This document shows, piece after piece, positions 5,147 through 64,000 of a stretch of DNA of 64,000 nucleotides. How positions within the stretch are numbered: the stretch's first letter is position 1; every line of letters begins with the position of its first letter. Both the position numbers and the translations under genes were made by a program. The DNA is from Bacteroidaceae bacterium (GTDB taxonomy: Bacteria > Bacteroidota > Bacteroidia > Bacteroidales > Barnesiellaceae_A): NCBI GenBank assembly GCA_017555825.1, contig JAFZFQ010000018.1, positions 8,359 to 72,358 of the forward strand, read 5' to 3'. The notes below the pieces were generated by a model. It was not told the DNA's origin. It ran no database searches and was given only the letters and a program-made list of their open reading frames with translations.

Positions 5147-7720
5147 TTACTTTTGTACGGCAACCTTGCTCACGCTATTGCCACAGCGCACAAGGTAAAT
5201 ACCCGATGTAGCAGGGCTATAGCTTGTTACATCGCCATCAAGTGCAATAGTTGCCACTGCAACACCTTGCATGTTATACACGGTAGCAGTTGCGTTATCG
5301 GCCTTTATGTATATACGGCCATTGGCGCTATACACATCGGCATTGGCAACAACACTCTCTACAGCACCCTTGTCGTCGGCTTTTACATTTATGACGTTCG
5401 ACCAGCGACTTGTTCCATCGGCTGTTACAGCACATACTTTATAGCGATACAGACCCTCATGTATAGGTGTCTCTACCTCTGTTACAGTATAGTGAGTGTC
5501 GGTTATACCCTCAATAGTGCGACTCTCGGTGATGCTCACTACATTCGACATCTCTTTTGCCTTGCTCACACGAGCCTTGCCCATGGTTGCTTCTCTCTCA
5601 ATACCGTTGTTGACGGTGAAGTTGTCAATAAAGATGCGTCGGTTGGCCTCAAGTGTAATTGAAACTTCGTCACCACCATGTTCATAAGCAATGCGCACTT
5701 CGCGGCTTTCGCCACTGGGCAGTTGCGACATATCTATATCGCACGATGCCGATGTTGCACCGTCTACTCTTATTGTCAGTACACCCGACTCGGCTGCCTT
5801 GTTGTAGGCATCGGCTGTAAAGCTCACTGTAAATTGCTTCTCCGTTTTAAACTTCGGAGTTGTGATATCGCCGGGATACTTGCTACTACCCAATTTCATC
5901 TTACCATTGCTGCAGAATACCTTCGAGCCACTCCATCCGGGGGTCATAGTATAGTCGTCGAGCGACGACGATATATCAAGGTCGGAACTCTCGGTAAACT
6001 TGTCGAAGTTCTCTTCAAAGGCAATAGCCGGAGCATCCGACTCCTCGATACGTTCTACATACAAGGTGTAGCTTATGGCTTCGTCTACTTTCGACCAGTA
6101 GGCTGTAAATTGGCTTGTGCTTATTTCGCCTGCCGATGTGGCAACAGGTGCCTCTACGGCTGCACCTTTACCGCCCATAAAGTCAAATGTGGTTACACCA
6201 TCGGCATAGTTGATATTGGTGATGGGCTTACCGGTAATGGTTGTATTGTATACCTTCATTTTGGGCGATGACGAGTCGGTGAGCGTGTTGTTTCCTTTGT
6301 AGGGGAACAAGTCGCCTTCCAAGTCGTATGTGCTCCAACGGTTGTCGGCAGGAATGAGCTTAAATCGTTGTCTTGACGGTGTGTCGTTCGGACCGTTGTG
6401 ATCCCACGCTCTCTTGTCATAGTCTACGGCTACTACCATCATGCCTTCGGCGGGCAATCCAAAGTCCCAACCCTCTTTCTTACGTGTTTCGAGTGTGATG
6501 TATTGGTTTTCATCGGTCGAGCTTATTCTATAAGCTGCGCTCTTGTCGCTATCCAAGAAGGGCATGGTGATTGTTGTAGGGTCGGTGAGTTCGTTCAACT
6601 CCAACCATCCGCAGTAGGCGCGCTCATAGGCGTTGTAGCCAATGGGTATATATCCGTCGCCGGCATAGCAACCGGCGTCCATAACGCTCCATGCGTCCAT
6701 ACCCATACCTCCCGAGTAGTCTATATCATACCAGTCGGGCAAGCCGAGTGTGTGGCTGTATTCGTGGCAGAATGTACCGATACCGTCGGGCTTAGTTCCC
6801 GATGAGTTGGCGAGCTCCGACGAGCAGGCATAAGCATCAAGTTTCACGCCATCAATCTCCACAGTGCGTTGTGCTCCTTGGTAGATATACCATGCATGAG
6901 GCCATATAGCATCTTCGTCTACACCACCTATATTCTCGCCATAGCCGGCATATATGGCATACACGAGGTCTACCCAGCCGTCTTTGTTCAAGTCATAGTC
7001 GGCCATGTTTACAAGTCCGTTTTTGCTGGCTATCTCGCATGCTTCCGACACCATCTCGTCGGGGTGTGCGTCATTGCCGTAGCGGTCGTTTCCGCCGTAA
7101 TACGACATATCCCTGCTCAGTGTTATGGGGCCTATTACGTCAAAGTCGGGTTTGAATTGACCATAACTTTGAGCGATAAAATAGTCGCGAGCCGAACCTA
7201 TCGAGCCATACTTGTCGGTGTAGCCCTCCTTGTTCATCATGTTATATACATTCTCTTGCGAGATCTTGAAAGCGTAGTCTTGAAACTCTACAAGGAGGAT
7301 GAGACCTCTCACTTTACCGTCGCTATCGGCTGTTTGACCAGCTTGTTGCATAGGAGCACGACGGCTCTTGATGTCGTTGTTCTTGCTTATGCGACGTGTT
7401 TGGTGTGTATTTCTGTGTTGCATGGCAATACTCTCTCGGCTGGCTATCTCGCCGGTGAAGGCGTCGCCTACTTTCACATTGCTTGCAACAAGGTTGTTTT
7501 GCTTGTCGAGTGTAGTATAACGGTAGAAACCATCTTCACACTTGGTTACGGGTGTGCCGTCTTCGGTTGTGTAGAAATGGTAAAATTCGTCACCACACAA
7601 GCGCAAGGTTATCACGCTTCCGTCGGGCTGTGTATAGGTTGTCACAGCTTTTCTCACGGGAGCAGCCGTGGCACATGTCAGTGCCATGGCTGCTATCAGT
7701 GTGTAAAAGATTCTTTTCAT
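5147..7720 (-). CDS. M6 family (immune inhibitor A-like) metalloprotease with T9SS C-terminal sorting domain
   Basis: 857 aa with a signal peptide. Zinc motif HEYSHTLGLPDWYD (HExxH). The C-terminus ..ATVYNMQGVAVATI..GIYLVRCGNSVSKVAVQK is T9SS CTD-like. About 250 aa of extra beta-rich sequence lies between the protease and the CTD relative to its neighbour. Confidence 0.8.
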   Translation of the reverse strand: MKRIFYTLIAAMALTCATAAPVRKAVTTYTQPDGSVITLRLCGDEFYHFYTTEDGTPVTKCEDGFYRYTTLDKQNNLVASNVKVGDAFTGEIASRESIAMQHRNTHQTRRISKNNDIKSRRAPMQQAGQTADSDGKVRGLILLVEFQDYAFKISQENVYNMMNKEGYTDKYGSIGSARDYFIAQSYGQFKPDFDVIGPITLSRDMSYYGGNDRYGNDAHPDEMVSEACEIASKNGLVNMADYDLNKDGWVDLVYAIYAGYGENIGGVDEDAIWPHAWYIYQGAQRTVEIDGVKLDAYACSSELANSSGTKPDGIGTFCHEYSHTLGLPDWYDIDYSGGMGMDAWSVMDAGCYAGDGYIPIGYNAYERAYCGWLELNELTDPTTITMPFLDSDKSAAYRISSTDENQYITLETRKKEGWDFGLPAEGMMVVAVDYDKRAWDHNGPNDTPSRQRFKLIPADNRWSTYDLEGDLFPYKGNNTLTDSSSPKMKVYNTTITGKPITNINYADGVTTFDFMGGKGAAVEAPVATSAGEISTSQFTAYWSKVDEAISYTLYVERIEESDAPAIAFEENFDKFTESSDLDISSSLDDYTMTPGWSGSKVFCSNGKMKLGSSKYPGDITTPKFKTEKQFTVSFTADAYNKAAESGVLTIRVDGATSASCDIDMSQLPSGESREVRIAYEHGGDEVSITLEANRRIFIDNFTVNNGIEREATMGKARVSKAKEMSNVVSITESRTIEGITDTHYTVTEVETPIHEGLYRYKVCAVTADGTSRWSNVINVKADDKGAVESVVANADVYSANGRIYIKADNATATVYNMQGVAVATIALDGDVTSYSPATSGIYLVRCGNSVSKVAVQK

Positions 7721-7756: not shown

Positions 7757-9595
7757 TTATTGTACGCTCACTTTCTCACAAAGTTCGCCGCATTTCACTA
7801 CATATAGACCGCGACCGGCGGGGGTGTAGTGTGCCTTGCCATTCTCTACTTTTACAGTGGCTACGAGCATACCTTGTACGTTGTATACATACATGTCGCT
7901 TGCGTGGCTATTGCGCACAATAATTTCACTACCGTTGTAGTATACTGCACCATTCTCGGCCTCAACACCATTTACACTACCGGTACCACCCATAAAGTCA
8001 AATGACGAAATCTTGGTTGTGGCGTCAAATGCAATGTTTGTTACGGGCTTACCCTTGATAGTTGTCAAGTGTATCTTCATGTTGGGGTTGGTCGATTCGG
8101 TAAATGAGTTTTGACCACCATTGGGCCACAAGTCACCCTCAAACGAATCTACACTTATATCATTGTCGGCAGGTACAAATTGGAAGCGTTGGCGCTTCAC
8201 GGTTGCATTCACCGAGTTGCTTTGCATATCCCATGCATCGGCGTCATAATCTACACGGATGATGAGCATACCCTCGGTGGGGAGGTATGCGTCCCAACCC
8301 TCTTGCACACGTGTCTCGAAGGTAAAGTAGCGGTCGGTGTTGTTATTGGCTACTACCTTGTAGGCTGTGGCCGATGTTGCTACATTCTCCATTACGATGG
8401 TAGTAGGCTCGGTGAGCTCGGTAATGCTCATCCAGCCGCAGAACTCACGCTCGTAGGCGTTGTATCCGCAAGGAATGCGACCTCCGGCGTTGTGGCAACC
8501 TTGGTCCATAACACTCCATTTGTTCATACCGAAACCGCCATAACCCTTGGTGTCGTACCAGTCGGGCAAGCCGAGTGTGTGGCTAAACTCGTGACAGATA
8601 GCGCCGATACCATACAAGTCGGTACCTTCTACGCCGGCAAGCTCCGATGTACATGCGTAGGCATCTACCTTCACACCGTTATACTCTCGATTCTTGGCTG
8701 CTGTGGTTTGACCCACCCATGCAGCATGAGGCCATATCGTGTTTTTGGGAGCACCGCTACTCTCGGCATAGCCGGCGTATACCACAAACACAAGGTCTAC
8801 ATAACCGTCGCTATCGCAGTCGTAGTCGGCAAAGTTGCACAAGTTTTGCTCCGAAGCTACATCGCAAGCATGCAAAGGCAAATAATACACCTTCGAGCCG
8901 TCGTCTCCACCGCTCATGCCATCTTGAGGTGTGCCATAGTAGGCCTCATTCTCCGGCAAGGTTACAGGACCTATTACATCGAAAGTGGGCTCAAACTTGC
9001 CGAAGCTTTGCGACAAGAAGTAGTCGCGTGCCGAGCCTATTGCGCCCATATAATCGTTGCCCTCTTCATTCATCAAGGCCGAGATATTCTCTTTTGTGCC
9101 GTTCTCGCTGAATTTTACATCTTGAAACTCAGCAAGAATTACAAGACCGCGCACCTTGGTCACTTCGCCTTCGGCTGTAGCTTGAGCTATCTTGCGCATG
9201 GGCGCTCCTTCGGGACGCGATGCAATGCTCATTTGGGCTCGTTTTACCTCTGCGTTGCGACGTACGTGGTTTTTGATAGCTTCGGCATCTATTTGTTGCA
9301 CAGATTGCAACTCTTCGCTTGCCAATTGCTTAGTATCACGAGCAACGATATTGCTGGCTACGCATTGGTTGTCTTGCATTTGTGTGTAGCGGTAGAAGCC
9401 ATCTTCGCACAACTCCACGATCTTGCCGTCGAGTGTGGTCATGTAGCTTCCATACTCATCACCATGCAACACTACGGTAATGGTGCTGCCATCGGGCTGG
9501 GTTATAACACGAGGTGTGCTGTCGGCAGGCAATGCCATGCCTTGCATTGCTATGAACAAGGCTGCTGCTGCACTGAGTAATAGTCTCTTTTTCAT
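7757..9595 (-). CDS. M6 family (immune inhibitor A-like) metalloprotease with T9SS C-terminal sorting domain (tandem paralogue)
   Basis: 612 aa with a signal peptide. Zinc motif HEFSHTLGLPDWYD. The N-terminus (TQPDGSTITVVLHGDEYGSYMTT..CEDGFYRYT) is colinear with the downstream gene. C-terminus ..MYVYNVQGMLVATVKV..GLYVVKCGELCEKVSVQ. Confidence 0.8.
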   Translation of the reverse strand: MKKRLLLSAAAALFIAMQGMALPADSTPRVITQPDGSTITVVLHGDEYGSYMTTLDGKIVELCEDGFYRYTQMQDNQCVASNIVARDTKQLASEELQSVQQIDAEAIKNHVRRNAEVKRAQMSIASRPEGAPMRKIAQATAEGEVTKVRGLVILAEFQDVKFSENGTKENISALMNEEGNDYMGAIGSARDYFLSQSFGKFEPTFDVIGPVTLPENEAYYGTPQDGMSGGDDGSKVYYLPLHACDVASEQNLCNFADYDCDSDGYVDLVFVVYAGYAESSGAPKNTIWPHAAWVGQTTAAKNREYNGVKVDAYACTSELAGVEGTDLYGIGAICHEFSHTLGLPDWYDTKGYGGFGMNKWSVMDQGCHNAGGRIPCGYNAYEREFCGWMSITELTEPTTIVMENVATSATAYKVVANNNTDRYFTFETRVQEGWDAYLPTEGMLIIRVDYDADAWDMQSNSVNATVKRQRFQFVPADNDISVDSFEGDLWPNGGQNSFTESTNPNMKIHLTTIKGKPVTNIAFDATTKISSFDFMGGTGSVNGVEAENGAVYYNGSEIIVRNSHASDMYVYNVQGMLVATVKVENGKAHYTPAGRGLYVVKCGELCEKVSVQ

Positions 9596-32308: not shown

Positions 32309-34261
32309 ATGAATACAATTGATTATCGTACCTTTAATCGCTCTAATCTCATGCCCAATCAGCCCGACAAAGCCCATGCTTCAACATGCGATTTTCATCG
32401 TCGCGACATCGATATTCTCGACGAGGCGCGCATGGCGTGGGAGGCTATTGCCGACTTCCGCACGCGTCGCGCTCGCAGTCGCGACTATACCTTTGGCAAG
32501 CAGTGGGGCGACCCCATATTGCTACCCGATGGGCGTGCCGTTTCTGAGGAGCAATACTTGCGTGAGCAGGGAAAAATACCGCTCAAAAACAATATGATAC
32601 GACAACTTGTCAAGAGCGTTTTGGGTCAATTTCGTTCTGCGCAGACCGAGCCTCTCTGTGTGGCTCGCGATAGAAGCGAGCAGCAATTGGGCGATCTCAT
32701 GACGACTGTCATGCAGTATGCCTATCAGCACAATCGCCTATACGAGCTCGATAGTCGCACGCTCGAAGAGTTCCTTATTTCGGGCGCATGCTTCCACAAG
32801 GTCGGATATGGCTCTCGTCGTGGCAAGACCGATGTGTGGGTGCAGGCGGTATCTCCATCGCGCATATTCTTCAACAACATGGAGGATAGTCGTCTGTGGG
32901 ATTGTACTCTCATTGGCGAGTTGCACGACATGACACTATCCGATCTTCTTGCTCGTTTTGCTCGTGGCGACGAGAAGAAAATGCAACAACTGCGCAACAT
33001 ATATGCCAATGTCTCACAGGAGCAGATTTACCAGGCATTCGACACGCTCTCCTCTCGCACCCAAGACTCGCTCGATTTCTTTATTCCATCCTCGCCCGAT
33101 CGCTGTCGTGTTATCGAGGTGTGGAAGATGACTCACACGCCACGTCTTCGTTGTCATGATACGCTCTCGGGCGACTTCTACAAGGTCGATGCCTCTATGC
33201 AGTCGCACATCGACAAGCAGAACAAATTGCGCATTGAGCAAGCGGCTATTCAAGGAGTAGTGGCGAGCGAAGTGCCTCTTATCGAGACCGAGTGGTTTTT
33301 GGATGCGGTGTGGTATTATCGTTTCTTCTCGCCTATGGGCGATGTACTCGACGAGGGCGAGACGCCCTATTGGCACGGCGAGCATCCCTATACGCTACGC
33401 CTCTATCCGCTTTTCGATGGCGAGGTGCACTCTTTTGTCGAGGATATTATCGACCAGCAACGCTACATCAATCGCCTCATTACAATGGTCGACTTCATAA
33501 TGGGTAGCAGTGCCAAGGGTGTATTGCTCTTTCCCGAAGATCAGATTCCCGACGGCATGACCATCGACGACATTGCTGCCGAGTGGACTCGCTACAATGG
33601 TGTTATTCTCTTTCGCCCCAAGCCGGGTTGCCCCATGCCGCAACAAGTATCGGTCAATGCTACCAACGTTGGGGCCTACGAGTTGCTTTCGTTGCAGATG
33701 CGATTGCTCGAAGATATTTCGGGCGTGCACAGTGCTATGCAGGGCAAGAGTGTATCGGCCGGTACACCTGCTTCGCTCTACACTCAGCAGGTGCAATTTT
33801 CGGCTACCAATCTGCTCGATATTTTCGAGTCCTTCAAGACCTTTCGCGAGGAGCGCGACACCAAGGTGCTCAAGACCATACAGCAGTTTTACTCTGCGGC
33901 TCGCTATTCGCTCATAGTGGGCGAGGGTGGGGGTATGCTCTCCGACACTACCCCCGAGAAGGTGCGCAATACCGAGTTCGACCTCTCGATTGCCGAGTCG
34001 GCGGCTGCTCCGGCGTTCCGTCAGGCTTCCAACGATTTTCTATTGGCGCTCTTTCGCTCGGGACACATATCGCTCTCTACATTGCTCGAAACAGGTGCTT
34101 TCCCCTTTGCCGACAAGCTATTGCAACACCTCAATACCGAGCAACAACAGCAATTGCAACAGATGGCTACGCTCATGGCGGCAAGTAATTCACAACCACA
34201 CTCCGTTGACTCATCTCACGAGCTCGACGCTCAACAACAACCATCGCAAGCAGGGCAGTGA
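32309..34261 (+). CDS. phage portal (podovirus head-to-tail connector)-like protein, orphan
   Basis: 650 aa. The N-terminal ..RARSRDYTFGKQWGD.. is like the F..G.QW motif near portal N-termini. The central ..YPLFDGEVHSFVEDIIDQQRYINRLITMVDFIMGSSAKGVLLF.. reads, from my memory of that sequence, like the core of T7 gp8-type connectors. The C-terminal tail is Gln-rich and helical (NTEQQQQLQQMATLMAAS). No signal peptide. Needs HMM or structure confirmation. Confidence 0.55.
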   Translation: MNTIDYRTFNRSNLMPNQPDKAHASTCDFHRRDIDILDEARMAWEAIADFRTRRARSRDYTFGKQWGDPILLPDGRAVSEEQYLREQGKIPLKNNMIRQLVKSVLGQFRSAQTEPLCVARDRSEQQLGDLMTTVMQYAYQHNRLYELDSRTLEEFLISGACFHKVGYGSRRGKTDVWVQAVSPSRIFFNNMEDSRLWDCTLIGELHDMTLSDLLARFARGDEKKMQQLRNIYANVSQEQIYQAFDTLSSRTQDSLDFFIPSSPDRCRVIEVWKMTHTPRLRCHDTLSGDFYKVDASMQSHIDKQNKLRIEQAAIQGVVASEVPLIETEWFLDAVWYYRFFSPMGDVLDEGETPYWHGEHPYTLRLYPLFDGEVHSFVEDIIDQQRYINRLITMVDFIMGSSAKGVLLFPEDQIPDGMTIDDIAAEWTRYNGVILFRPKPGCPMPQQVSVNATNVGAYELLSLQMRLLEDISGVHSAMQGKSVSAGTPASLYTQQVQFSATNLLDIFESFKTFREERDTKVLKTIQQFYSAARYSLIVGEGGGMLSDTTPEKVRNTEFDLSIAESAAAPAFRQASNDFLLALFRSGHISLSTLLETGAFPFADKLLQHLNTEQQQQLQQMATLMAASNSQPHSVDSSHELDAQQQPSQAGQ

Positions 34262-36716: not shown

Positions 36717-36721
36717 TAAGC

Positions 36722-36765
36722 CCCTCACGCATCAGCACGCCCGATCTATATGCCAATAGGTAATC
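36722..36765. repeat. copy 1 of a 44-bp intergenic direct repeat
   Basis: CCCTCACGCATCAGCACGCCCG-AT-CTATATGCCAATAGGTAATC. Confidence 0.7.
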
Positions 36766-36805
36766 ATTTGCTCCACTGTCGCCTTGCGACTGAGGGGTTG
36801 AAATA

Positions 36806-36872
36806 CCCTCGTGCATCAGCACGCCCGTAGGGACGTACCACCGGTACGTCCGCTATATGCAGATAGGTAATC
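36806..36872. repeat. copy 2 of the repeat, carrying a 25-nt hairpin insertion
   Basis: CCCTCGTGCATCAGCACGCCCG and CTATATGCAGATAGGTAATC are separated by TAGGGACGTACCACCGGTACGTCCG. That insert has stem GGACGTACC (36831-36839) / GGTACGTCC (36843-36851). Confidence 0.7.
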
Positions 36873-36915
36873 CCATACCGTTGCATTACATTGCTTCTGT
36901 GAAACGTGCGCACCG

Positions 36916-37061
36916 ATGTCTGCAAGACATGTTGAGTGGCATTTATGCCACGAATATGGATAACCCCGTACGAGTGCCGATAGGCACGAAGTGCGGGGAA
37001 AACGAGTCAAAGAAAACCACCGTCTGCAAGACGGGAGATATACCCACGTCCGATGTATATC
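36916..37061. other. cluster of short GC-rich hairpins (possible structured RNA or REP/MITE-like relic)
   Basis: Five hairpins: ATGTCT-GCA-AGACAT (36916-30); GTGGCAT-TT-ATGCCAC (36936-51); nested CCCCGTAC..GTGCC-GATA-GGCAC..GTGCGGGG (36964-98); CCGTCT-GCA-AGACGG (37020-34); GATATAC..GTATATC (37037-61). There is no plausible ORF. Confidence 0.5.
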
Positions 37062-37239
37062 ACGCACCGTCCTTGCATTTCCGCCCACACCTCTCACACC
37101 ACACATCTTTTATTATAAAATTTCCCCACATCCCCCAAATCACGCCAAAAATTGCTATCTTTGAGGTAAACCTCCAATATACTTTCGCTCGCTGTGAAAA
37201 ATATTCAAGCAAGCTTGATATTTCTCGCTCGCTTATTCG

Positions 37240-37247
37240 TATCTTTG
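37240..37247 (+). promoter_or_regulatory. candidate Bacteroidetes -7 box (TAnnTTTG)
   Basis: TATCTTTG, 21 nt upstream of GTG 37268. A second TATCTTTG lies at 37156-37163. Confidence 0.4.
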
Positions 37248-37267
37248 TTCACTAAAAATAAGCCCAC

Positions 37268-54139: not shown

Positions 54140-57100
54140 ATGAAAAGGCTTTCACTATTTTTGGCATTTGCCTTCTGTATCGTGGTTGCTATGGTAGCGC
54201 AGAGTACCATTCAACTCACGACTTCACGTCCTGTGGGCGAAGAGTTTGTCATGACTCTATACTCTACATCGAGCAACGACCCCTTTACTATCGATTGGGG
54301 CGATGGCTCTAAGACTACTCACAATGTGTCGCCTACCGATATTCCCTATTTTCAACGCATTGCAGGTACACTCCGTGGCAATACACTCACCATTACAGGC
54401 AACATTGTTCACCTCACTGCCACCGAGCAAGCTATTACATCTGTCGAGATTGCCAATCAAACACACCTCAAAGAGCTCTGCTTGTCGCAAAACGAACTCT
54501 CGCACATAGCTTTCGTGGGCGATGCTGCTCCCTTGCAGTCATTGCAACTCAACAACAACCGGCTCACCAATAGCACCGAGAGCAATCCCACGCTGGGCCT
54601 TGAGGTTTTTGCTTCAACTCTCAGCACCCTCGATCTCTCCAACAACAACCTCATTTGCCTCAATATTCAAGAGCTGGTCAATCTCAAGGAGCTGTATATT
54701 AAGGACAACCCCTTGTTTACATCTATCTTCATTGCCATGCCCGAGGAGTCGCGCGACATCGAAAAAATCGATCTCTCTAATGGCGACCTCTCGCACTTCT
54801 ATCCCATATACATGCCCAAGCTCACCTCCTTGCACCTTGCCAACAATACGCTCATGGAGGACTTTGTTATCGACCACTACTATCCTGCGCTCAAATATCT
54901 CTCTATCAATGGCAACTACATCCCCGCTATCGATGTTACAGAGTGTGCCAAGTTGGAGCAGTTCGATTGTTCGCGCAACTACTTGACCAATCTCGATGTC
55001 TCGCAAAATGCGCAACTCACACAATTGCTCTGTTCGGCCAATCAACTTTCGGCTATCAACGTTTCCAACAACGTCATGCTCACTACCTTGTCGTGCGATA
55101 GCAACAACATTGCCAAGATCGACCTTTTGCAAAACAACAAGTTGCAATACATCAACGTGTCGAGCAACCCCATCTCTTTTATCGACCTTTCACAAGCCTA
55201 CAACCTGCGTCGTTTTGAGGCGGCTGCTACCTTGTGCGACTACTTCTATTTCAACCACGTCAATCCTGCCGGTCGTTTCGAGTATGTCGATGTGCGCGAC
55301 AACCCCAACCTCACTGCCGATGCGCTCAACTGCATGTACAAGACCATGCCCGTGCATCATGGTAGCTCCTACAGTGCCAACTTGCTCATAAGTGGCTCTA
55401 ATGGAGAGACCTCCGATACTTCATACCCCAACAGCACCGACATGGGTTGGAAAACCGATATTCAAGGCGACGGTACTGCCACCAATCACTTGGTCGACGT
55501 TACATTCGATGCAGTCAAGTCGGGCAATACAATCGACATTACAGGCACTTTTGGCGGTATCAATGCCGACCAATCTTATACCTTTGCCGAGTATACTACC
55601 GAGTTTGGTACTTTTGCTGTGGCTCAATGGGATACTCCTTATTATCAAAAGTTTAAAGAGGTTACCGACAAGGCCAATGTGGGTGTACCCATCGTTGTGT
55701 TTGCATTTCCCAAGGTGGGATACAAGTTCAAGAACATAGAGATTGACGGTCGCGTGGTAGAGAACAACACCTTTGTTATCAACCAAGCCGCCAATGTAAA
55801 GGTAAACTTTGCCGTTGAAGAAAACTCTATCACTTTCACTACTACCCAAGGCATTCCCTTGTCATTCCAACTTGGTGGACCCGACCTCAGCAATACAATT
55901 GAGATCGATTGGGGTAATGGTAGCCGTCAGCAATACACCATTCCTCAATATGCCGACTATACCATCGCCGGTGGTCGCATTGAGGGCACATCTATGGGCT
56001 CTACTGTTACCATTTACGGTAATGTTATATATGCCAACTTCGAGAGCGAACCCTACTTTGTGGGTTGGGACAACCAGATTACAGCCATCGACCTCTCGCA
56101 AAATACTTATCTCGAATATCTCGACCTCTATTGGAACCCTGTTCGCACCCTCAATCTTGCCGGCATGAGCCGTCTTGAGGTATTGGGTGTGAGTTACACC
56201 GCGCTCAAAGAGCTCAACTTGGCAGGCGCTTCCAACCTCTTGCAACTCGAATGTTATAGCGATGGTTACGGTTTTGAGGAAGACGGTATCGCATTGCTCT
56301 CGCAACTCGATATCTCTAAGACTCCCAAGTTGCGCTACCTCGATGCCAAGAACAACCGCCTCGAAACCATCAACTTTGCCTACAACAGCGACTTGAACTA
56401 TATCAATATTTCAAACAACAATATTTCCTATGTCGATGTTACCAACCTGCCTACTTTGTGGTATTTCATGGCGGCCGACAACGAGCTTACTCAACTCGAT
56501 TTGTCACAAAACATACAGTTGGTAGAGTTGGCTTTGAGCAACAACAACCTCACCGAACTCAATCTTTCTAATAACAATAGTATACAATTATTGTCTATTG
56601 AAAATAATGCTATCGCAACACTCGATTTGAGCGGTATGGCCAACCTTATGCAACTCAAAATAGGTGGCAACGGCCTCACTGCTTGTCAGCTCAACGACAT
56701 CTACTACTCATTGCCTCAATATCCCGAACTCACCCAAGAGGAGCAAGATGCCATAGCGGGCTATCCCTTGAATGTGGGTCAAGCCGGTGAAGCAACCCCC
56801 AACGACTCTTACGGTGCCGATGCTTCTATCGCTACTTCAAAGGGTTGGAGCATCAACATTGCCGGCAATGGCAATGGTTGCGAGACTGCCTATATCGACA
56901 TCGTTCCCTCTGAGAATGGCTCTATCCGCTTGTACGATGTTGACAATAACGAGATTTTATCGGGTACTACCACCCTGCGCAATAGTGACATCACTGTGGT
57001 CGCTACGCCTGCCGAGGGTTATGCCTACACCTCTGTTTTGCTGAACGATGTAGAGGAAGTCAAGGGCAACACATTCATGATTGGTGCCTACTGCCGTGTG

Positions 57101-57352
57101 CAAGGTCTCTTCAATAGCAACCAAGCAATCGACGACAATCTCTCTCGCACTACTCGCGTCTTTGCCACTCGCGGTGCTATACATGTCGAGGCTCACGAGC
57201 GCGTGATGGTTGCAGTATACACTATCGATGGTCGCTTGGTATATGAGACTGCCGTACTCGACAACGTCTCAATACCCACACCCTCGGGCATGTATATCGT
57301 GCGAGTTGTCGACAACAACCAAACCGAAACACACACCATAGCCGTGCAATAA
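54140..57352 (+). CDS. leucine-rich repeat surface protein with T9SS C-terminal sorting domain
   Basis: 1070 aa with a signal peptide. Two blocks of ~22-aa LRRs (L..LDLS.N.L..L) are each preceded by a ..DWG[DN]GS.. module. InlB-B-repeat-like segments are present. The C-terminus ..VAVYTIDGRLVYE..GMYIVRVVDNNQTETHTIAVQ is CTD-like. Confidence 0.8.
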   Translation: MKRLSLFLAFAFCIVVAMVAQSTIQLTTSRPVGEEFVMTLYSTSSNDPFTIDWGDGSKTTHNVSPTDIPYFQRIAGTLRGNTLTITGNIVHLTATEQAITSVEIANQTHLKELCLSQNELSHIAFVGDAAPLQSLQLNNNRLTNSTESNPTLGLEVFASTLSTLDLSNNNLICLNIQELVNLKELYIKDNPLFTSIFIAMPEESRDIEKIDLSNGDLSHFYPIYMPKLTSLHLANNTLMEDFVIDHYYPALKYLSINGNYIPAIDVTECAKLEQFDCSRNYLTNLDVSQNAQLTQLLCSANQLSAINVSNNVMLTTLSCDSNNIAKIDLLQNNKLQYINVSSNPISFIDLSQAYNLRRFEAAATLCDYFYFNHVNPAGRFEYVDVRDNPNLTADALNCMYKTMPVHHGSSYSANLLISGSNGETSDTSYPNSTDMGWKTDIQGDGTATNHLVDVTFDAVKSGNTIDITGTFGGINADQSYTFAEYTTEFGTFAVAQWDTPYYQKFKEVTDKANVGVPIVVFAFPKVGYKFKNIEIDGRVVENNTFVINQAANVKVNFAVEENSITFTTTQGIPLSFQLGGPDLSNTIEIDWGNGSRQQYTIPQYADYTIAGGRIEGTSMGSTVTIYGNVIYANFESEPYFVGWDNQITAIDLSQNTYLEYLDLYWNPVRTLNLAGMSRLEVLGVSYTALKELNLAGASNLLQLECYSDGYGFEEDGIALLSQLDISKTPKLRYLDAKNNRLETINFAYNSDLNYINISNNNISYVDVTNLPTLWYFMAADNELTQLDLSQNIQLVELALSNNNLTELNLSNNNSIQLLSIENNAIATLDLSGMANLMQLKIGGNGLTACQLNDIYYSLPQYPELTQEEQDAIAGYPLNVGQAGEATPNDSYGADASIATSKGWSINIAGNGNGCETAYIDIVPSENGSIRLYDVDNNEILSGTTTLRNSDITVVATPAEGYAYTSVLLNDVEEVKGNTFMIGAYCRVQGLFNSNQAIDDNLSRTTRVFATRGAIHVEAHERVMVAVYTIDGRLVYETAVLDNVSIPTPSGMYIVRVVDNNQTETHTIAVQ

Positions 57353-58689: not shown

Positions 58690-60234
58690 TTATTTGGCTG
58701 TGAGTGTTATCAGAGGAACCATCATCTCTTCGAGCGATATACCTCCGTGTTGGAAAGTGTCCTTATAGTAACTTACGTAGTAGTTGTAGTTGTTGGGGTA
58801 GGCAAAGAAGTCGCTGTTGGTAGCAAAGATATAGGTCGAGCTGATGTTGGGCGAGGGTAGGCCATAGAGCTTCGGATTCTTTATCTCGTATACCTGCTTG
58901 GGGTTGTAACTGAGTGACTTGCCTACTTTATAGCGCAAGTTGGTATTGGTATTTTTGTCGCCTATAACTTTGATAGGACTATCGACGTGTACCGTGCCGT
59001 GGTCGGTTGTGAGGATAATTTTGTATCCGCTCTCGGCTATCTTCTTAAAGAGGTCTATAGCCGATGAGTGGCGAAACCATGACTCGGTAAGCGAGCGATA
59101 GGCTGCCTCGGTCGAGGCGAGCTCGCGCATCATCTTCGACTCGGTGCGGGCATGTGATAGCATATCGATAAAGTTGAGTACGCACACATTCAACGGCTTG
59201 TCGGTAAAGCGCGAGAAGTTCTGCAAGAGCTTGTCTCCGTAGGCGTTTTCGTTGATTTTGTTGTAGGTAAACTCATAGTTCTTGCGGAAACGGTCGAGTT
59301 GTGTCTGTATGAGGGGTGCTTCGTTGAGGTTCTTGCCCTCTTCTTCGTCTTCGTCTACCCATAGGTCGGGAAACATCTCGGCTATTTTGTTGGGCATCAG
59401 ACCCGAGAAGATTGCGTTGCGGGCATATTGGGTTGCGGTGGGCAGTATGCTGCAATACATCTCTTCCTCGGCAGTAAAGTAGTTGCTGAGTAGGGGTTGT
59501 ATGATGCGCCATTGGTCGAGGCGGAAGTTATCGATGAGTATAAAGAAGAGCTTCTCGCCATTGTCCAGGGCAGGAAAAACGCGCTTCTTGAAGAGCTCGT
59601 GGCTCATCATGGGGTGGTCGTCGGTGGTTATCCAGCGCTCGTAGTTTTTCTTGATAAACTTGGCAAACGCGGCATTGGCTTCCACCTTCTGCATGCGCAA
59701 TAGGTCGTCCATATTGGTTGTCTCGGCATGCGATAGCTCAAGATCCCAATAAACGAGTTTGCGATATACTTCGTTCCAATCTTCCCAGGTAGATGAGTTG
59801 TTTATGAGCATACCTATGCGGCCAAACTCTTGTTGGTAGTTGCTCGTTGTCTCGTCCGATATAATCTCGCGACTATGCAAGTTCTTCTTGATAGAGAGAA
59901 ATATCTGGTTGGGATTGACGGGCTTGATGAGGTAATCGGCAATTTTGTTGCCTATGGCCTGGTTCATAATATCCTCTTCCTCACTCTTGGTTATCATGAC
60001 CACAGGTATCTCGGGGTGACGCTCTTTGATGTGGCTCAGGGTCTCCAGGCCACTCAAGCCGGGCATGTTCTCATCGAGAATGATGAGATCGTATTTCTCT
60101 TTTTCGCACGCATCGAGGGCATCGAGACCATTGGTCACGGTGGTGAGGTCATATCCCTTCTGTGTGAGAAAAAGTATGTGAGGCTTGAGCAAGTCTATCT
60201 CGTCATCGGCCCATAGTATCATCGGTTGTTTCAT
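58690..60234 (-). CDS. porX: response regulator with PglZ (alkaline-phosphatase-like) domain, PorX-type T9SS regulator
   Basis: 514 aa. A CheY receiver ([23 protein letters not shown]) is fused to a C-terminal PglZ domain (..TDHGTVHV..). The architecture, size and adjacency to a PorW/SprE-like gene fit PorX. Confidence 0.75.
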
Positions 60235-62890
60235 CGTTGTAGGGGGTGTAGAAGTTGTTAAAAAACTCGAAGTACTCTTCCAACGTGCGACCTTGCAATA
60301 GCAACTCGTAGTTGGCTGTACTTATCATCACCGGTCGCACGCCTTCGGGTAGTACAAAGCTGCTTTCGTTGGTCATTACCGAGCGGTAGTGTACCACCTC
60401 TTCAAAGGTGTTGAAGCCTTTGACCATGAGCAACGACAAGTCGTTGAATGTAACAATATCGAGGTCGAAATCTTTCACTAAGAAGTGTGAAAAATTCATG
60501 CGTGCTACCTCATAGAGCAACAAGTTGGCCGATATCTCACGGTTGTTGAAGGCATACAGGAAGTAGTGCTCGCTGAGGGGGGTGTATGTAAATGTGCGTG
60601 TACTGTCGGCCACGGCGTTCTCGCCTTCGCCCAGTCGGGTATCCCACACCATGCCGCGTGCATTGCCACTGCCACTCACTTCGCGACCTTGTGTTATGCC
60701 CTTGAGAATGTTGCCGGTAAACTCGCTCACATCGGACGAGGGGTACTTGTCGATGAGGGTTTGAACAATATCTTTAAACTTGTCGAAGTCCTTGTCGCCT
60801 ATGTAGGCCATAGCGTCGAGGAACATAAACTTGTGCATGATGTCCGACAGTGGGTATTCGCTCTTGGCTTGTGCCACATATTGATGCACGGCGGGGTTGT
60901 CGTTGTTGAGATATGCCGTGTAGGTCTTGTGGTAGAGAGAGTCTTGCATGGCACCCTCATTGCGACGTTTTTCGAGATAGTAGGGGTCGCTCAGTGCTAT
61001 GGCATATTCGCTCTCCTTGAAGAGTGTGAGTATCTTGCTGCGGTATGTCTCGGCCTGTTCGGGCTCGTTGTTGCGCATGTGCATCAAGTAACGGTTGTAG
61101 TAGGTGTCGAGGCGATATTTGTGCTCGGGGAATCGTTTTTCCAACTCGTCAAATGTTGCCGATGCCGCCTCATAGTCTTCCAAGTCGTTCTTGAGGATGA
61201 TACCCATGTTGTAGAGTCCCTCGATGATAATCTCGTTTGACGATGCCATCTCCTCGGGTGTCAGAGGTATCTGTTTGAGATAATACTCTATCTTGTGCGG
61301 GTCGTCGGCATTGGCAAGGGCCACACTGTCGACGGGTGTGCTATTTGTGCCTTCGGCCATGGCCGGGGCGTTGTCGGCCTCTGTGTCGTTGCTACCTACG
61401 TTGCCAAAGTCGCTGGTTGAGAAGCCCGACTTGTTGCGACGACGCCAATCATCTTCCAACTTACGTGAGCCCCATTTTTTTTGGAACTCCGACTTACCCG
61501 AGTTGATGAGTTGTTGGTTGTAGAAGTACCACGAGCCATCGCCGGCCATAGTATTGTTCATGGGCTGGTTGGCTCCACCTTTCAGTAAGTTAGTGCTCAA
61601 GCCTTCGTTTTCGGCCAGATACTCTTCGCGGGCACGTTCTTCGGCCTCTTTCTTCTCGGTTTCGATAAGGTCGTCTATCATCTTTTGCAACACGGCATTA
61701 CGCTCCTCCTCGCTCATGCGGGCAAGGTTTTGCAAGCTGTCTTGCAACTCGACGTTCTGTGCATATACGACCAACTTGTCGAGCACAGCCGAGCGACGTG
61801 TGAGCAACTTGTAGTTGGGGTAGTCTTCCTTGAGCATGGGTATTGCCTCGGAGTAGCAGGGTTGTGCATCGACATACTCGCGACGACCAAAGTGCAACTC
61901 GCCCAGCGTGATTTGGCACACGGCTTTTTCTATACCGTTGCGAGTGCTTTTCTCTACTGCTTTCTTGTAGTTGTCTATGGCATGTGTGGTATCGTTGTGA
62001 GCCATGTAGAGGTTGCCTATGGCATAGTATATCTGGTCGAGATAATCTTTGTTTACACTTCTGTGAGTGAGGCGTTCGAGCGATTTTACCTCTTTCTCCA
62101 CGTTGCTACCGGCATATACCTCGCTCATCTTGATGCGGGCGTTGAACTGTGTGCGGTAGGTGGGGTTCATATTGATAACCTTCTTGAAGGCATTGTATGA
62201 CTCTACAGGTTGCTTGTCGATGGCATAGAGCTGACCCAACAAGAATGTGAGACGCGCCTTTTGCGACTTGTTGTGCTCGTCTTTGATGGCTGTCTCAAGG
62301 AAAGGAATAGCCTTGGCGTAGTTCTTGGTTTTGATGAGATAGTCGGTATTGACAGTAGCAAACGTACTATTCATCTCGGGAGGTAGGCTGTCGTTGTTGG
62401 CTTTGTAGAGCACATCTTCGGCTTCATAAATCCAGTCGAGAGCGATGTAACTGCGAGCTTGCCACAGACGAGCTTCGGCAACGGTCTTGGGTAGCCATGA
62501 GTAGTGTTGCGCAATGTACATAAAAGTGGCCGAGGCACCCAAAAAGTCGCCCTTGTTGTACTGAGCCTTGCCCATGAGCATCCATGCGTTGTGTATAAAG
62601 GGGTTATACTCTTCTCGTTGCATATACTCCTTGTACTTGGGGTCGTTGCGCTTGCCTTGTGTGCGCTTGGGCTTGCTCTTGATACTGTGCTTTTGTATCG
62701 CGCTTTGGCACTTCTCTATTGTACGGTCGAAAGAGCCCTGAGGTTGAGGGTCTTTGGGGTTGCTGTAGGCTTGAGCCGGAGTGGTGTATACGAGGTCGGT
62801 ATAGTTGTCTTCGTATTGGTCTTGTTGCAACTTGAGTTGCTCTATATAGTTCTGCTCGGCATTGAAGTAAACGTTGTAGCGGGTGGTCAT
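60203..62890 (-). CDS. porW: TPR-repeat protein, PorW/SprE-like T9SS lipoprotein (longest intact ORF; signal peptide is detached, see 62942..63004)
   Basis: 895 aa with multiple TPR-like repeats. The residues just upstream and at the start (..SSCNTTKNTGWTRFYQSMTTRYNVYFNAEQNY) match the C-[ST]TKKN...R..H.[LM]T.[RK]YN.L[YF]N pattern I recall at SprE/PorW N-termini. It overlaps porX by ~30 nt. Confidence 0.65.
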   Translation of the reverse strand: MTTRYNVYFNAEQNYIEQLKLQQDQYEDNYTDLVYTTPAQAYSNPKDPQPQGSFDRTIEKCQSAIQKHSIKSKPKRTQGKRNDPKYKEYMQREEYNPFIHNAWMLMGKAQYNKGDFLGASATFMYIAQHYSWLPKTVAEARLWQARSYIALDWIYEAEDVLYKANNDSLPPEMNSTFATVNTDYLIKTKNYAKAIPFLETAIKDEHNKSQKARLTFLLGQLYAIDKQPVESYNAFKKVINMNPTYRTQFNARIKMSEVYAGSNVEKEVKSLERLTHRSVNKDYLDQIYYAIGNLYMAHNDTTHAIDNYKKAVEKSTRNGIEKAVCQITLGELHFGRREYVDAQPCYSEAIPMLKEDYPNYKLLTRRSAVLDKLVVYAQNVELQDSLQNLARMSEEERNAVLQKMIDDLIETEKKEAEERAREEYLAENEGLSTNLLKGGANQPMNNTMAGDGSWYFYNQQLINSGKSEFQKKWGSRKLEDDWRRRNKSGFSTSDFGNVGSNDTEADNAPAMAEGTNSTPVDSVALANADDPHKIEYYLKQIPLTPEEMASSNEIIIEGLYNMGIILKNDLEDYEAASATFDELEKRFPEHKYRLDTYYNRYLMHMRNNEPEQAETYRSKILTLFKESEYAIALSDPYYLEKRRNEGAMQDSLYHKTYTAYLNNDNPAVHQYVAQAKSEYPLSDIMHKFMFLDAMAYIGDKDFDKFKDIVQTLIDKYPSSDVSEFTGNILKGITQGREVSGSGNARGMVWDTRLGEGENAVADSTRTFTYTPLSEHYFLYAFNNREISANLLLYEVARMNFSHFLVKDFDLDIVTFNDLSLLMVKGFNTFEEVVHYRSVMTNESSFVLPEGVRPVMISTANYELLLQGRTLEEYFEFFNNFYTPYNDETTDDTMGR

Positions 62891-62941
62891 CGATTGGTAG
62901 AAGCGAGTCCAACCGGTGTTTTTGGTAGTATTGCACGACGA

Positions 62942-63004
62942 TCACAACACGACAATGAGTAGTGTTGCAACGATGTATATGTGGGTGATAGTCTCTTTTT
63001 TCAT
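62942..63004 (-). other. detached lipoprotein signal-peptide segment of the PorW/SprE-like gene, ending in an in-frame TGA
   Basis: In the same frame as the 60203..62890 ORF, ATG 63004 gives MKKETITHIYIVATLLIVVL, then TGA (62944-62942), then SSC... It starts 28 nt downstream of the preceding gene's stop. Confidence 0.7.
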
Positions 63005-63032: not shown

Positions 63033-63869
63033 TTATTGTCTTATATTCATGCTCTTGTTGCGCAATGTGCGTGTGTACAGGGCGTGTATTGCCTTGGCAA
63101 TTGCATATAGCACTACGAGCACTACTACTATGCAAGCACCTGTGGGGACAGCAATGATGGCCGACATAAAGAGCCCGACCACGCTACCTGCGAGGCACAC
63201 ACTACCCGATAGTATCATCATCGTTTTGTATCGAGAGGTGTAGAGCTCGGCAATAATCTGTGGCAGTGTGAGCACCGACATGAGCAACATGATGCCAATG
63301 AGTCGTATGGAGAGTACCACGCCGATGGCTATAAAGAGCATCATGATGGTGTTGATGTGACTCGTTTTTATGCCTTGAATGCGAGCAAAGTCGGTATCGA
63401 ATGCAGTGTAGAGTATGGGGCGGTATTGCACGGTAACATAGAGCACAAGTGCCAATGTGTAGATGGCAAAGAGGGTAATATCGGTAGTGGTGATGGTGAG
63501 GATGTTGCCAAATAGAAACTCCGACAGCCCCGGTGTGTAGCCCGGTGTGAGGAAAATAAAGATGATGCCCACAGCCATGCCCACAGCCCAAAATAGTGCT
63601 ATCGCCGAGTCTTCGCGTATGCGCTTAGTGCGCGAAGTGAGCTCGATGCCCAATGCCGTGGCGGTAGCAAATATGAGCGCCGAAAAGGTGGGCGAAATGC
63701 CTGCAAAGTATCCAATACCCAACCCGCCGAAAGAGGCATGTGTGAGCCCGCCGGCGATGAAAACCATGCGCCGTGTGACGATGTAGGTGCCAATGATGGC
63801 CGCTACAACCGAAATGAGCAGGATGCCTACAAGGGCGTTTTGGAAGAATGTATATTGCAGTATATCCAT
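63033..63869 (-). CDS. metal ABC transporter permease (ABC-3 / ZnuB-like)
   Basis: MDILQYTFFQNALVGILLISVVAAIIGTYIVTRRMVFIAGGLTHASFGG.. is typical of ABC-3 permeases, with ~8 TM segments. I prefer ATG 63869 because the upstream reading frame stops at 63883-63885. Confidence 0.85.
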   Translation of the reverse strand: MDILQYTFFQNALVGILLISVVAAIIGTYIVTRRMVFIAGGLTHASFGGLGIGYFAGISPTFSALIFATATALGIELTSRTKRIREDSAIALFWAVGMAVGIIFIFLTPGYTPGLSEFLFGNILTITTTDITLFAIYTLALVLYVTVQYRPILYTAFDTDFARIQGIKTSHINTIMMLFIAIGVVLSIRLIGIMLLMSVLTLPQIIAELYTSRYKTMMILSGSVCLAGSVVGLFMSAIIAVPTGACIVVVLVVLYAIAKAIHALYTRTLRNKSMNIRQ

Positions 63870-63882
63870 TGTTTGGTGGTGG

Positions 63883-64000
63883 TTAAAAGCGTCTTTCGCC
63901 AACGATGAGCAGTACTTCGTCTTTTACCTCGTCGGGTAGTTCTATGCCACGCAGTTGCAAGCTACGCACCCAGCCGGCTACTTCGTGGCTCTGCATGGTG
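63883..64000 (-). CDS. 3' end of a CDS truncated by the window edge (function not determinable; possibly the ABC transporter partner)
   Basis: An open minus-strand frame ..LQLRGIELPDEVKDEVLLIVGERRF-TAA ends 13 nt before the permease ATG. Only position supports a functional guess. Confidence 0.3.
   Translation of the reverse strand, partial: TMQSHEVAGWVRSLQLRGIELPDEVKDEVLLIVGERRF

Follow-up and report, generated by a model that had tools for sequence, protein, structure and literature searches.

The window analysed here, 64,000 nucleotides of contig JAFZFQ010000018.1 from the metagenome-assembled genome (MAG) GCA_017555825.1 of a Bacteroidaceae bacterium, carries a gene for PorW/SprE, a type IX secretion system (T9SS) lipoprotein, that is interrupted by a TGA codon at 62944-62942. 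We found that this TGA is a private change of a leucine codon (TTA to TGA, Leu21 to stop) in an otherwise intact and conserved porW, and that the organism reads TGA as a stop under the standard genetic code. In our assessment, the chances are about even that the change is a real and very young loss-of-function allele, possibly sub-clonal.

On the minus strand, the start codon ATG is followed by 19 sense codons (AAA AAA GAG ACT ATC ACC CAC ATA TAC ATC GTT GCA ACA CTA CTC ATT GTC GTG TTG), then by the TGA and by TCG TCG TGC AAT. This agrees, base for base, with the coordinates and the translation of an earlier sequence-only reading of this DNA, which had placed an in-frame stop between a lipoprotein signal peptide and its cysteine. 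The altered base is 62943, where the coding strand has G for T and the plus strand C for A. The stop does separate the signal from the lipidated Cys, as that reading held, with the refinement that it does not precede the lipobox and replaces the lipobox -3 leucine itself (VVL-[L]-S-S-C). The intact protein P0001 (933 aa), retrieved in the protein search, is identical to the 20 residues before and to the 912 residues after the stop, and presents a Leu at the stop position. Since both flanks are homologous to intact orthologues, the interruption is that of a genuine gene and not a chance layout of open reading frames (ORFs); it is a real interruption of a real porW gene. Two further ORFs, one antisense (62504-62962, plus strand) and one in the +1 frame (62604-62945, minus strand), match no Pfam family and were treated as shadow ORFs.

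The ORF after the stop matches the NCBIfam equivalog NF052312.1 (T9SS periplasmic lipoprotein PorW/SprE) with 692.9 bits for a cutoff of 250, which bears out the earlier naming of the gene. The match runs from residue 2 to residue 743 of this ORF and from position 7 to position 714 of the 716 positions of the profile. It starts one residue after the stop, so that the protein also comprises the 17 residues that lie between this TGA and the ATG of the annotation. Tetratricopeptide repeat (TPR) families TPR_2, TPR_1, TPR_12, TPR_8, TPR_14 and TPR_6 exceed their Pfam cutoffs at approximately residues 200-372 and 576-606. The signal peptidase II (SPII) signal and the lipobox Cys are both present, yet split by the TGA at lipobox -3; signal, lipobox and +1 Cys are contiguous in each of the six conspecific contigs, as they are in 22 homologues. 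The conservation of the signal peptide in these 22 homologues and in 12 related-species loci, with an invariant Cys, supports the earlier assignment of the 20 upstream codons to an SPII signal peptide. The same reading had taken PorW/SprE proteins to be lipoproteins, in line with the literature, where the members of the PorW family are outer-membrane lipoproteins that all share a lipobox with a +1 Cys (PMC8754138). Because the TGA parts the signal peptide from this Cys, the locus is a porW gene whose product, as encoded, is not a lipoprotein.

The shortened porW is public as MBR5843330.1 (895 aa; window 60203-62890, minus strand), encoded on a 99,805-bp contig. Its NCBI label is 'MAG: tetratricopeptide repeat protein [Bacteroidaceae bacterium]', it is labelled neither as a pseudogene nor as PorW, and only the ORF from the ATG at 62890 was annotated by NCBI. 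The coordinates of the features are collected in Table 1.

Table 1 Features of the interrupted porW locus and of its immediate neighbours (window coordinates)
Feature	Position	Strand	Remark
porW ATG start	63004-63002	-	read directly from sequence
SPII signal peptide remnant, 20 codons (MKKETITHIYIVATLLIVVL)	62945..63004	-	A-rich start context, typical of the genome
Premature TGA, codon 21 of porW, lipobox -3 position	62942..62944	-	Leu (TTA) in all conspecifics
Remaining lipobox Ser-Ser-Cys	62933..62941	-	conserved lipidation site: Cys codon TGC, 62935-62933
6-nt direct repeat GTCGTG	62953-62948 and 62939-62934 (region 62934..62953)	-	brackets the changed base
First in-frame ATG past the stop, annotated start of the 895-aa ORF	62888..62890	-	ORF listing
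Mature porW/sprE, 912 codons and native TGA (60205-60203)	60203..62941	-	100% identity with intact P0001
porX, T9SS response regulator with PglZ domain	58690..60234	-	NF052313, 838.6 bits; intact
ABC-3 metal-transporter permease, upstream of porW	63033..63902	-	stop 28 nt before porW ATG

The uniqueness of the TGA was established on nine conspecific loci covering the site (L001-L005 and L027-L030, from six distinct contigs of ENA and Logan assemblies) and on 12 related-species loci from GTDB representative genomes, which comprise 'RGIG' MAGs from the ruminant rectum together with Barnesiella or Porphyromonadaceae MAGs, at 69-87% protein identity. All nine conspecific loci read GTG TTG TTA TCG TCG TGC. 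In the related species, codon 21 is TTC, CTG, CTC, CTA or GTA (Leu, Phe or Val), TGA in none of the 12, and it is followed in every one of them by two small residues and then the invariant Cys. The alignment of orthologues, a check that the sequence-only reading had proposed, thus shows a sense codon in all relatives (TTA/TTC/CTN/GTA). Since all of them carry a sense codon, the TGA is derived, through one transversion (TTA to TGA), and private, and an assembly error is not proven thereby.

The contig ERZ27256905:k141_298503 overlaps the window at 36863-64000 (27,138 bp) and differs from it at 62943 only, with T for the G of the window, while the other conspecific contigs are approximately 99.0-99.3% identical to the window. 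Within porW, the conspecific strains differ from the window by 12-16 synonymous and 2-4 non-synonymous codons, in addition to the stop, and this excess of synonymous differences indicates purifying selection on porW within the species. In the gene-position index, no contig other than the NCBI one carries the 895-aa product. An exact-DNA scan of the GTDB representative genomes with a 36-mer holding N at the variable base gave 0 hits, so the species representative lacks this 36-mer. A paralogous donor or a mis-join was rejected, the 21-mer around the site being unique in the window even with 3 mismatches allowed. A second apparent disruption of porW, in locus L006 (570 + 248 aa, nt approximately 2014), is only a 10-N scaffold gap, and the split GH25 (glycoside hydrolase family 25) gene of locus L002 (15030) is likewise caused by such a gap. 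Indeed, in the XIEF21-1_..._METAG scaffolds, 10-N gaps split genes into two called products, scaffolding artefacts that mimic pseudogenes in gene tables.

If the bacterial population behind the MAG does carry the G, perhaps as a variant of a sub-population and not as a fixed trait, ribosomes starting at the ATG at 63004 would release a peptide of 20 residues. The 25 nt upstream of this ATG contain 52% A, as is typical of this genome, and those upstream of the ATG at 62890 contain 16% A and 44% A+T, in the bottom 2% of the 46 gene starts of the window. Re-initiation at this second ATG, 51 nt downstream and in a poor context, would consequently yield little protein, and the product, devoid of signal peptide and lipidation site, would stay cytoplasmic. 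PorW of Porphyromonas gingivalis is reported to be a lipoprotein of the outer membrane, oriented towards the periplasm, and to connect Sov with PorN/PorK; its requirement for the secretion of proteins with a C-terminal domain (CTD), and its binding of Sov and PorN, are known only in P. gingivalis and Flavobacterium johnsoniae (PMC8754138). A cytoplasmic PorW product would be unable to connect the Sov translocon with the PorK/N ring. Since PorW acts at the periplasmic face of the outer membrane, out of reach for such a product, the T9SS is expected to be non-functional, and cells with the allele would lose type IX secretion of their CTD cargo (M6 proteases, leucine-rich repeat (LRR) protein). 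The expression of the overlapping porX may drop as well, if the two genes are translationally coupled.

That the base is real we infer in part from the assembly procedure. In MEGAHIT, a k-mer is retained only if it occurs two times or more, and at a bubble the deeper branch is chosen. Owing to this filter and this bubble rule, a wrong base in a 99.8-kb contig is uncommon and would need a recurrent miscall. The RGIG names of the neighbouring MAGs, together with the XIEF21 and SRR125292xx labels of the identical contigs, point to a study of the ruminant gastrointestinal tract as the data source, with PCR-free NovaSeq 2x150 reads and MEGAHIT single-sample assemblies and co-assemblies (PMC8199421).

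In other assemblies, contigs from this strain (loci L025, L026 and L031/L032) end or start 0-10 nt from the changed base, with 100% identity to the window over their overlap. ERZ27256885:k141_2432439 (17,144 bp) ends at 62943, its last base being T, the Logan contig from SRR12529250 ends at 62948, and SAMN15830058 scaffold_306 (46,754 bp) starts at 62933; a second contig has the same 909-aa cut product as this scaffold. The ends at 62948 and 62933 directly follow the two copies of GTCGTG. For each of the two long contigs, the chance of an end within 10 nt of a given base is, by our own estimate, roughly 1 in 1,000. As chance ends are so improbable, the reads at the site are probably heterogeneous or depleted in coverage in several samples. 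The causes that can be named are a true T/G polymorphism, perhaps with other alleles, or a sequence-specific sequencing problem.

Two other origins of these ends were tried and rejected. A strain mixture would need SNPs at a distance of k-1, at 63083, 62978 and 62793; none of these is variable among the conspecifics, whose nearest variable sites are 63266 and 62615. The ends are thus difficult to account for unless the reads here are heterogeneous in several samples, which we count in favour of a real variant. From a simple SNP bubble, or from slippage with a 14-nt deletion across 62947-62934 (which would create a junction of CATTGTCGTG with CAATAC), one would expect cut products of 912 aa and 911 aa, and only the 909-aa product (start 62933) is on record.

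Elsewhere in the window, the intergenic stretch 36717-37267 appears to be a variable repeat region. It contains short direct repeats (36722/36806 and 36746/36853), the conspecific scaffold L007 (5474-6041) carries there a 296-bp tandem duplication with two copies that are 96% identical, and two further strain contigs begin at 36863 and 37219.

The strongest alternative is that the DNA of the organism has TTA, that porW is an intact lipoprotein gene and that the G at 62943 is a miscall carried into the contig by MEGAHIT, which could be either random, if the local coverage was low, or a NovaSeq 'dark-G' error that depends on the sequence. We consider this artefact a serious contender, whose probability stays somewhat below one half. 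Its evidence is also what weighs against a real allele. The G is found in one assembly only, with T in every other conspecific contig, including the one identical over 27,138 bp, and the truncated 895-aa product is recorded from the NCBI MAG alone. The change T to G (A to C on the plus strand) is the class of miscall typical of two-colour Illumina chemistry, in which the absence of a signal is called as G. NovaSeq is the platform of the source study (PMC8199421). A sequence-specific problem of local quality or coverage could, moreover, be the cause of the contig breaks at the site in other assemblies. Finally, porW and the neighbouring T9SS genes show no other decay, and an artefact would account just as well for a core T9SS gene that is null next to an intact porX and intact cargo genes, without a second mutation over 27 kb. 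Two further figures discriminate neither way: stop-creating changes make up 3.5% of the possible substitutions in the region, and the unpolarised class A<->C/G<->T accounts for 36 of 211 conspecific SNPs (17%; transition/transversion ratio 2.0).

On the other side, the length of the 99.8-kb contig implies a reasonable depth, and under the MEGAHIT filtering the error would have to recur. Of the classic triggers of such errors, a GGC motif, a homopolymer or a strong hairpin, none is present locally (fold z = +0.39). The Logan contig, for which the reads were presumably not trimmed, likewise ends at a distance of 5 nt from the changed base. Overall, we lean slightly towards a real variant over the artefact.

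A more specific form of the real variant is that the G allele segregates with T in several animals or gut sites, as a natural sub-population of an uncultured Barnesiella-like hindgut commensal in which the T9SS is off. Segregating alleles would account for the contigs of this strain breaking within 10 nt of the base in independent assemblies. The allele may then arise repeatedly at a small mutational hot spot between the GTCGTG repeats, and the porW-null cells may be kept by phage, immune or 'cheater' selection. We hold this scenario to be unlikely.

The possibility that the UGA is recoded, i.e. read as selenocysteine (Sec), or as Trp, Cys, Gly or Arg by a near-cognate or suppressor tRNA in a programmed or tolerated manner, so that the gene is still functional, is very improbable. 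The reading frame is fully open on both sides of the TGA, and UGA is the leakiest stop codon in bacteria, which both count for it. Against it, codon 21 is not TGA in any of the six conspecific contigs or the 12 related-species loci, and the sequence downstream of the TGA is identical in the TTA-bearing strains, which rules out that a recoding element has evolved for it. The 81-nt stretch around and past this codon folds with a minimum free energy of -13.4 kcal/mol, compared to a mean of -14.45 kcal/mol for shuffled sequences (z = +0.39), unlike a selenocysteine insertion sequence (SECIS) element, and an Rfam search gave no match. The base after the stop is U, and in E. coli no context terminates more efficiently at UGA. 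Trp, Sec or Arg would, in addition, be a poor fit for the lipobox -3 Leu. A tRNA scan of the 64-kb window found no tRNA gene, hence no tRNA-Sec or suppressor within the window.

A lineage-wide alternative code, in which TGA encodes an amino acid (table 4 or 25) and there is no interruption, can be practically dismissed. Nothing speaks for it beyond the in-frame TGA itself, which is the only one within a conserved gene and is TTA in otherwise identical strains. Under table 11, a set of 46 genes covers 90.6% of the window, and TGA ends five of the 46. The porW gene itself ends in TGA at a conserved C-terminus in all relatives, with a tandem TGA TGA in three related species (L013, L014 and L016). 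To our knowledge, no code reassignment has been described in Bacteroidales. Functional readthrough and an alternative code, taken jointly, retain only a slight probability. The coding density and the single in-frame TGA of the gene set thus uphold the earlier view that a reassigned code is unlikely. Of the three options that the sequence-only reading had left (base error, recent nonsense mutation and readthrough), the first two remain, and readthrough as a designed feature is removed.

The surroundings of porW are those of a T9SS locus. porX starts (at 60234 or 60222) within the 3' end of porW, an overlap of 20-32 nt (window 60203-60234), which suggests translational coupling of the two genes; porX is followed downstream by tsaE and then by a GH25 lysozyme gene. 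The upstream ABC-3 permease gene is probably co-transcribed with porW, as judged from the short distance between its stop and the porW ATG (Table 1).

Three window proteins exceed the TIGR04183 cutoff for a type-A CTD, at 61-1812, 5147-7720 (M6 protease) and 54140-57352 (LRR protein). A second M6 protease (7757-9595) scores 20.8, just under the cutoff of 23. The earlier count of porX and at least four CTD-cargo genes as intact therefore stands for porX and for three cargo genes, the fourth falling just below the cutoff. The two M6-family metalloprotease genes (TIGR03296; 5147-7720 and 7757-9595, both on the minus strand) adjoin each other, and the first matches weakly the T9SS-dependent surface endonuclease family NF052644 (47 bits for a cutoff of 260).

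Additionally, the gene at 32309-34261 (plus strand) stands between an Omp85-like and an AmiA-like gene. The product is identical in L007 (650 aa), where it matches PF16510 (P22_portal) among precomputed Pfam hits and has no NCBIfam match; it may be a phage-derived remnant.

For the users of this MAG, MBR5843330.1 deserves a quality flag, as a PorW without signal peptide and lipidation site that is filed as a plain TPR protein, and a T9SS capacity or a lipoprotein content deduced from this MAG would mislead. If the base is real, a lineage or a sub-population has just lost type IX secretion, a small natural example of a secretion-system knockout in a commensal of the gut. If the G is a miscall, it shows how a single base can make a false pseudogene in a short-read MAG. 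Either outcome leaves the knowledge of the T9SS and of translation as it stands.

Compared with known systems, the gene resembles porW of P. gingivalis and sprE of F. johnsoniae in its equivalog-level match to NF052312, its TPR arrays, the adjoining porX and the CTD cargo nearby, as well as in the SPII signal and lipobox Cys conserved in all relatives of the locus. It differs from them in that codon 21 is here a stop and the encoded product is not exportable or lipidated, the 895-aa MBR5843330.1 being without the defining N-terminus. A second likeness is to the spontaneous or phage-selected gliding and T9SS mutants of Flavobacterium, where single mutations disable components in otherwise intact genomes and can segregate within populations (PMC9804748; bioRxiv 10.1101/2020.10.02.323337). 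Those mutants were obtained by selection in the laboratory, in cultured Flavobacteriia, and their phenotypes were verified, unlike the single base of a gut Bacteroidales MAG, read from one assembly. In these texts, no sprE/porW allele was found among the phage-resistant mutants, the string 'spre' matching only 'spreading'. The locus is also similar to the consensus errors and apparent pseudogenes of short-read MAGs, as a singleton difference from a contig of the same strain that is annotated as a shorter 'normal' protein; it differs in being a substitution and not an indel or a scaffold gap, and other assemblies break at the same spot. Set beside these systems, it is not a new kind of system: a well-known gene carries an ordinary nonsense point change in one short-read MAG of a ruminant-hindgut Barnesiella-like bacterium.

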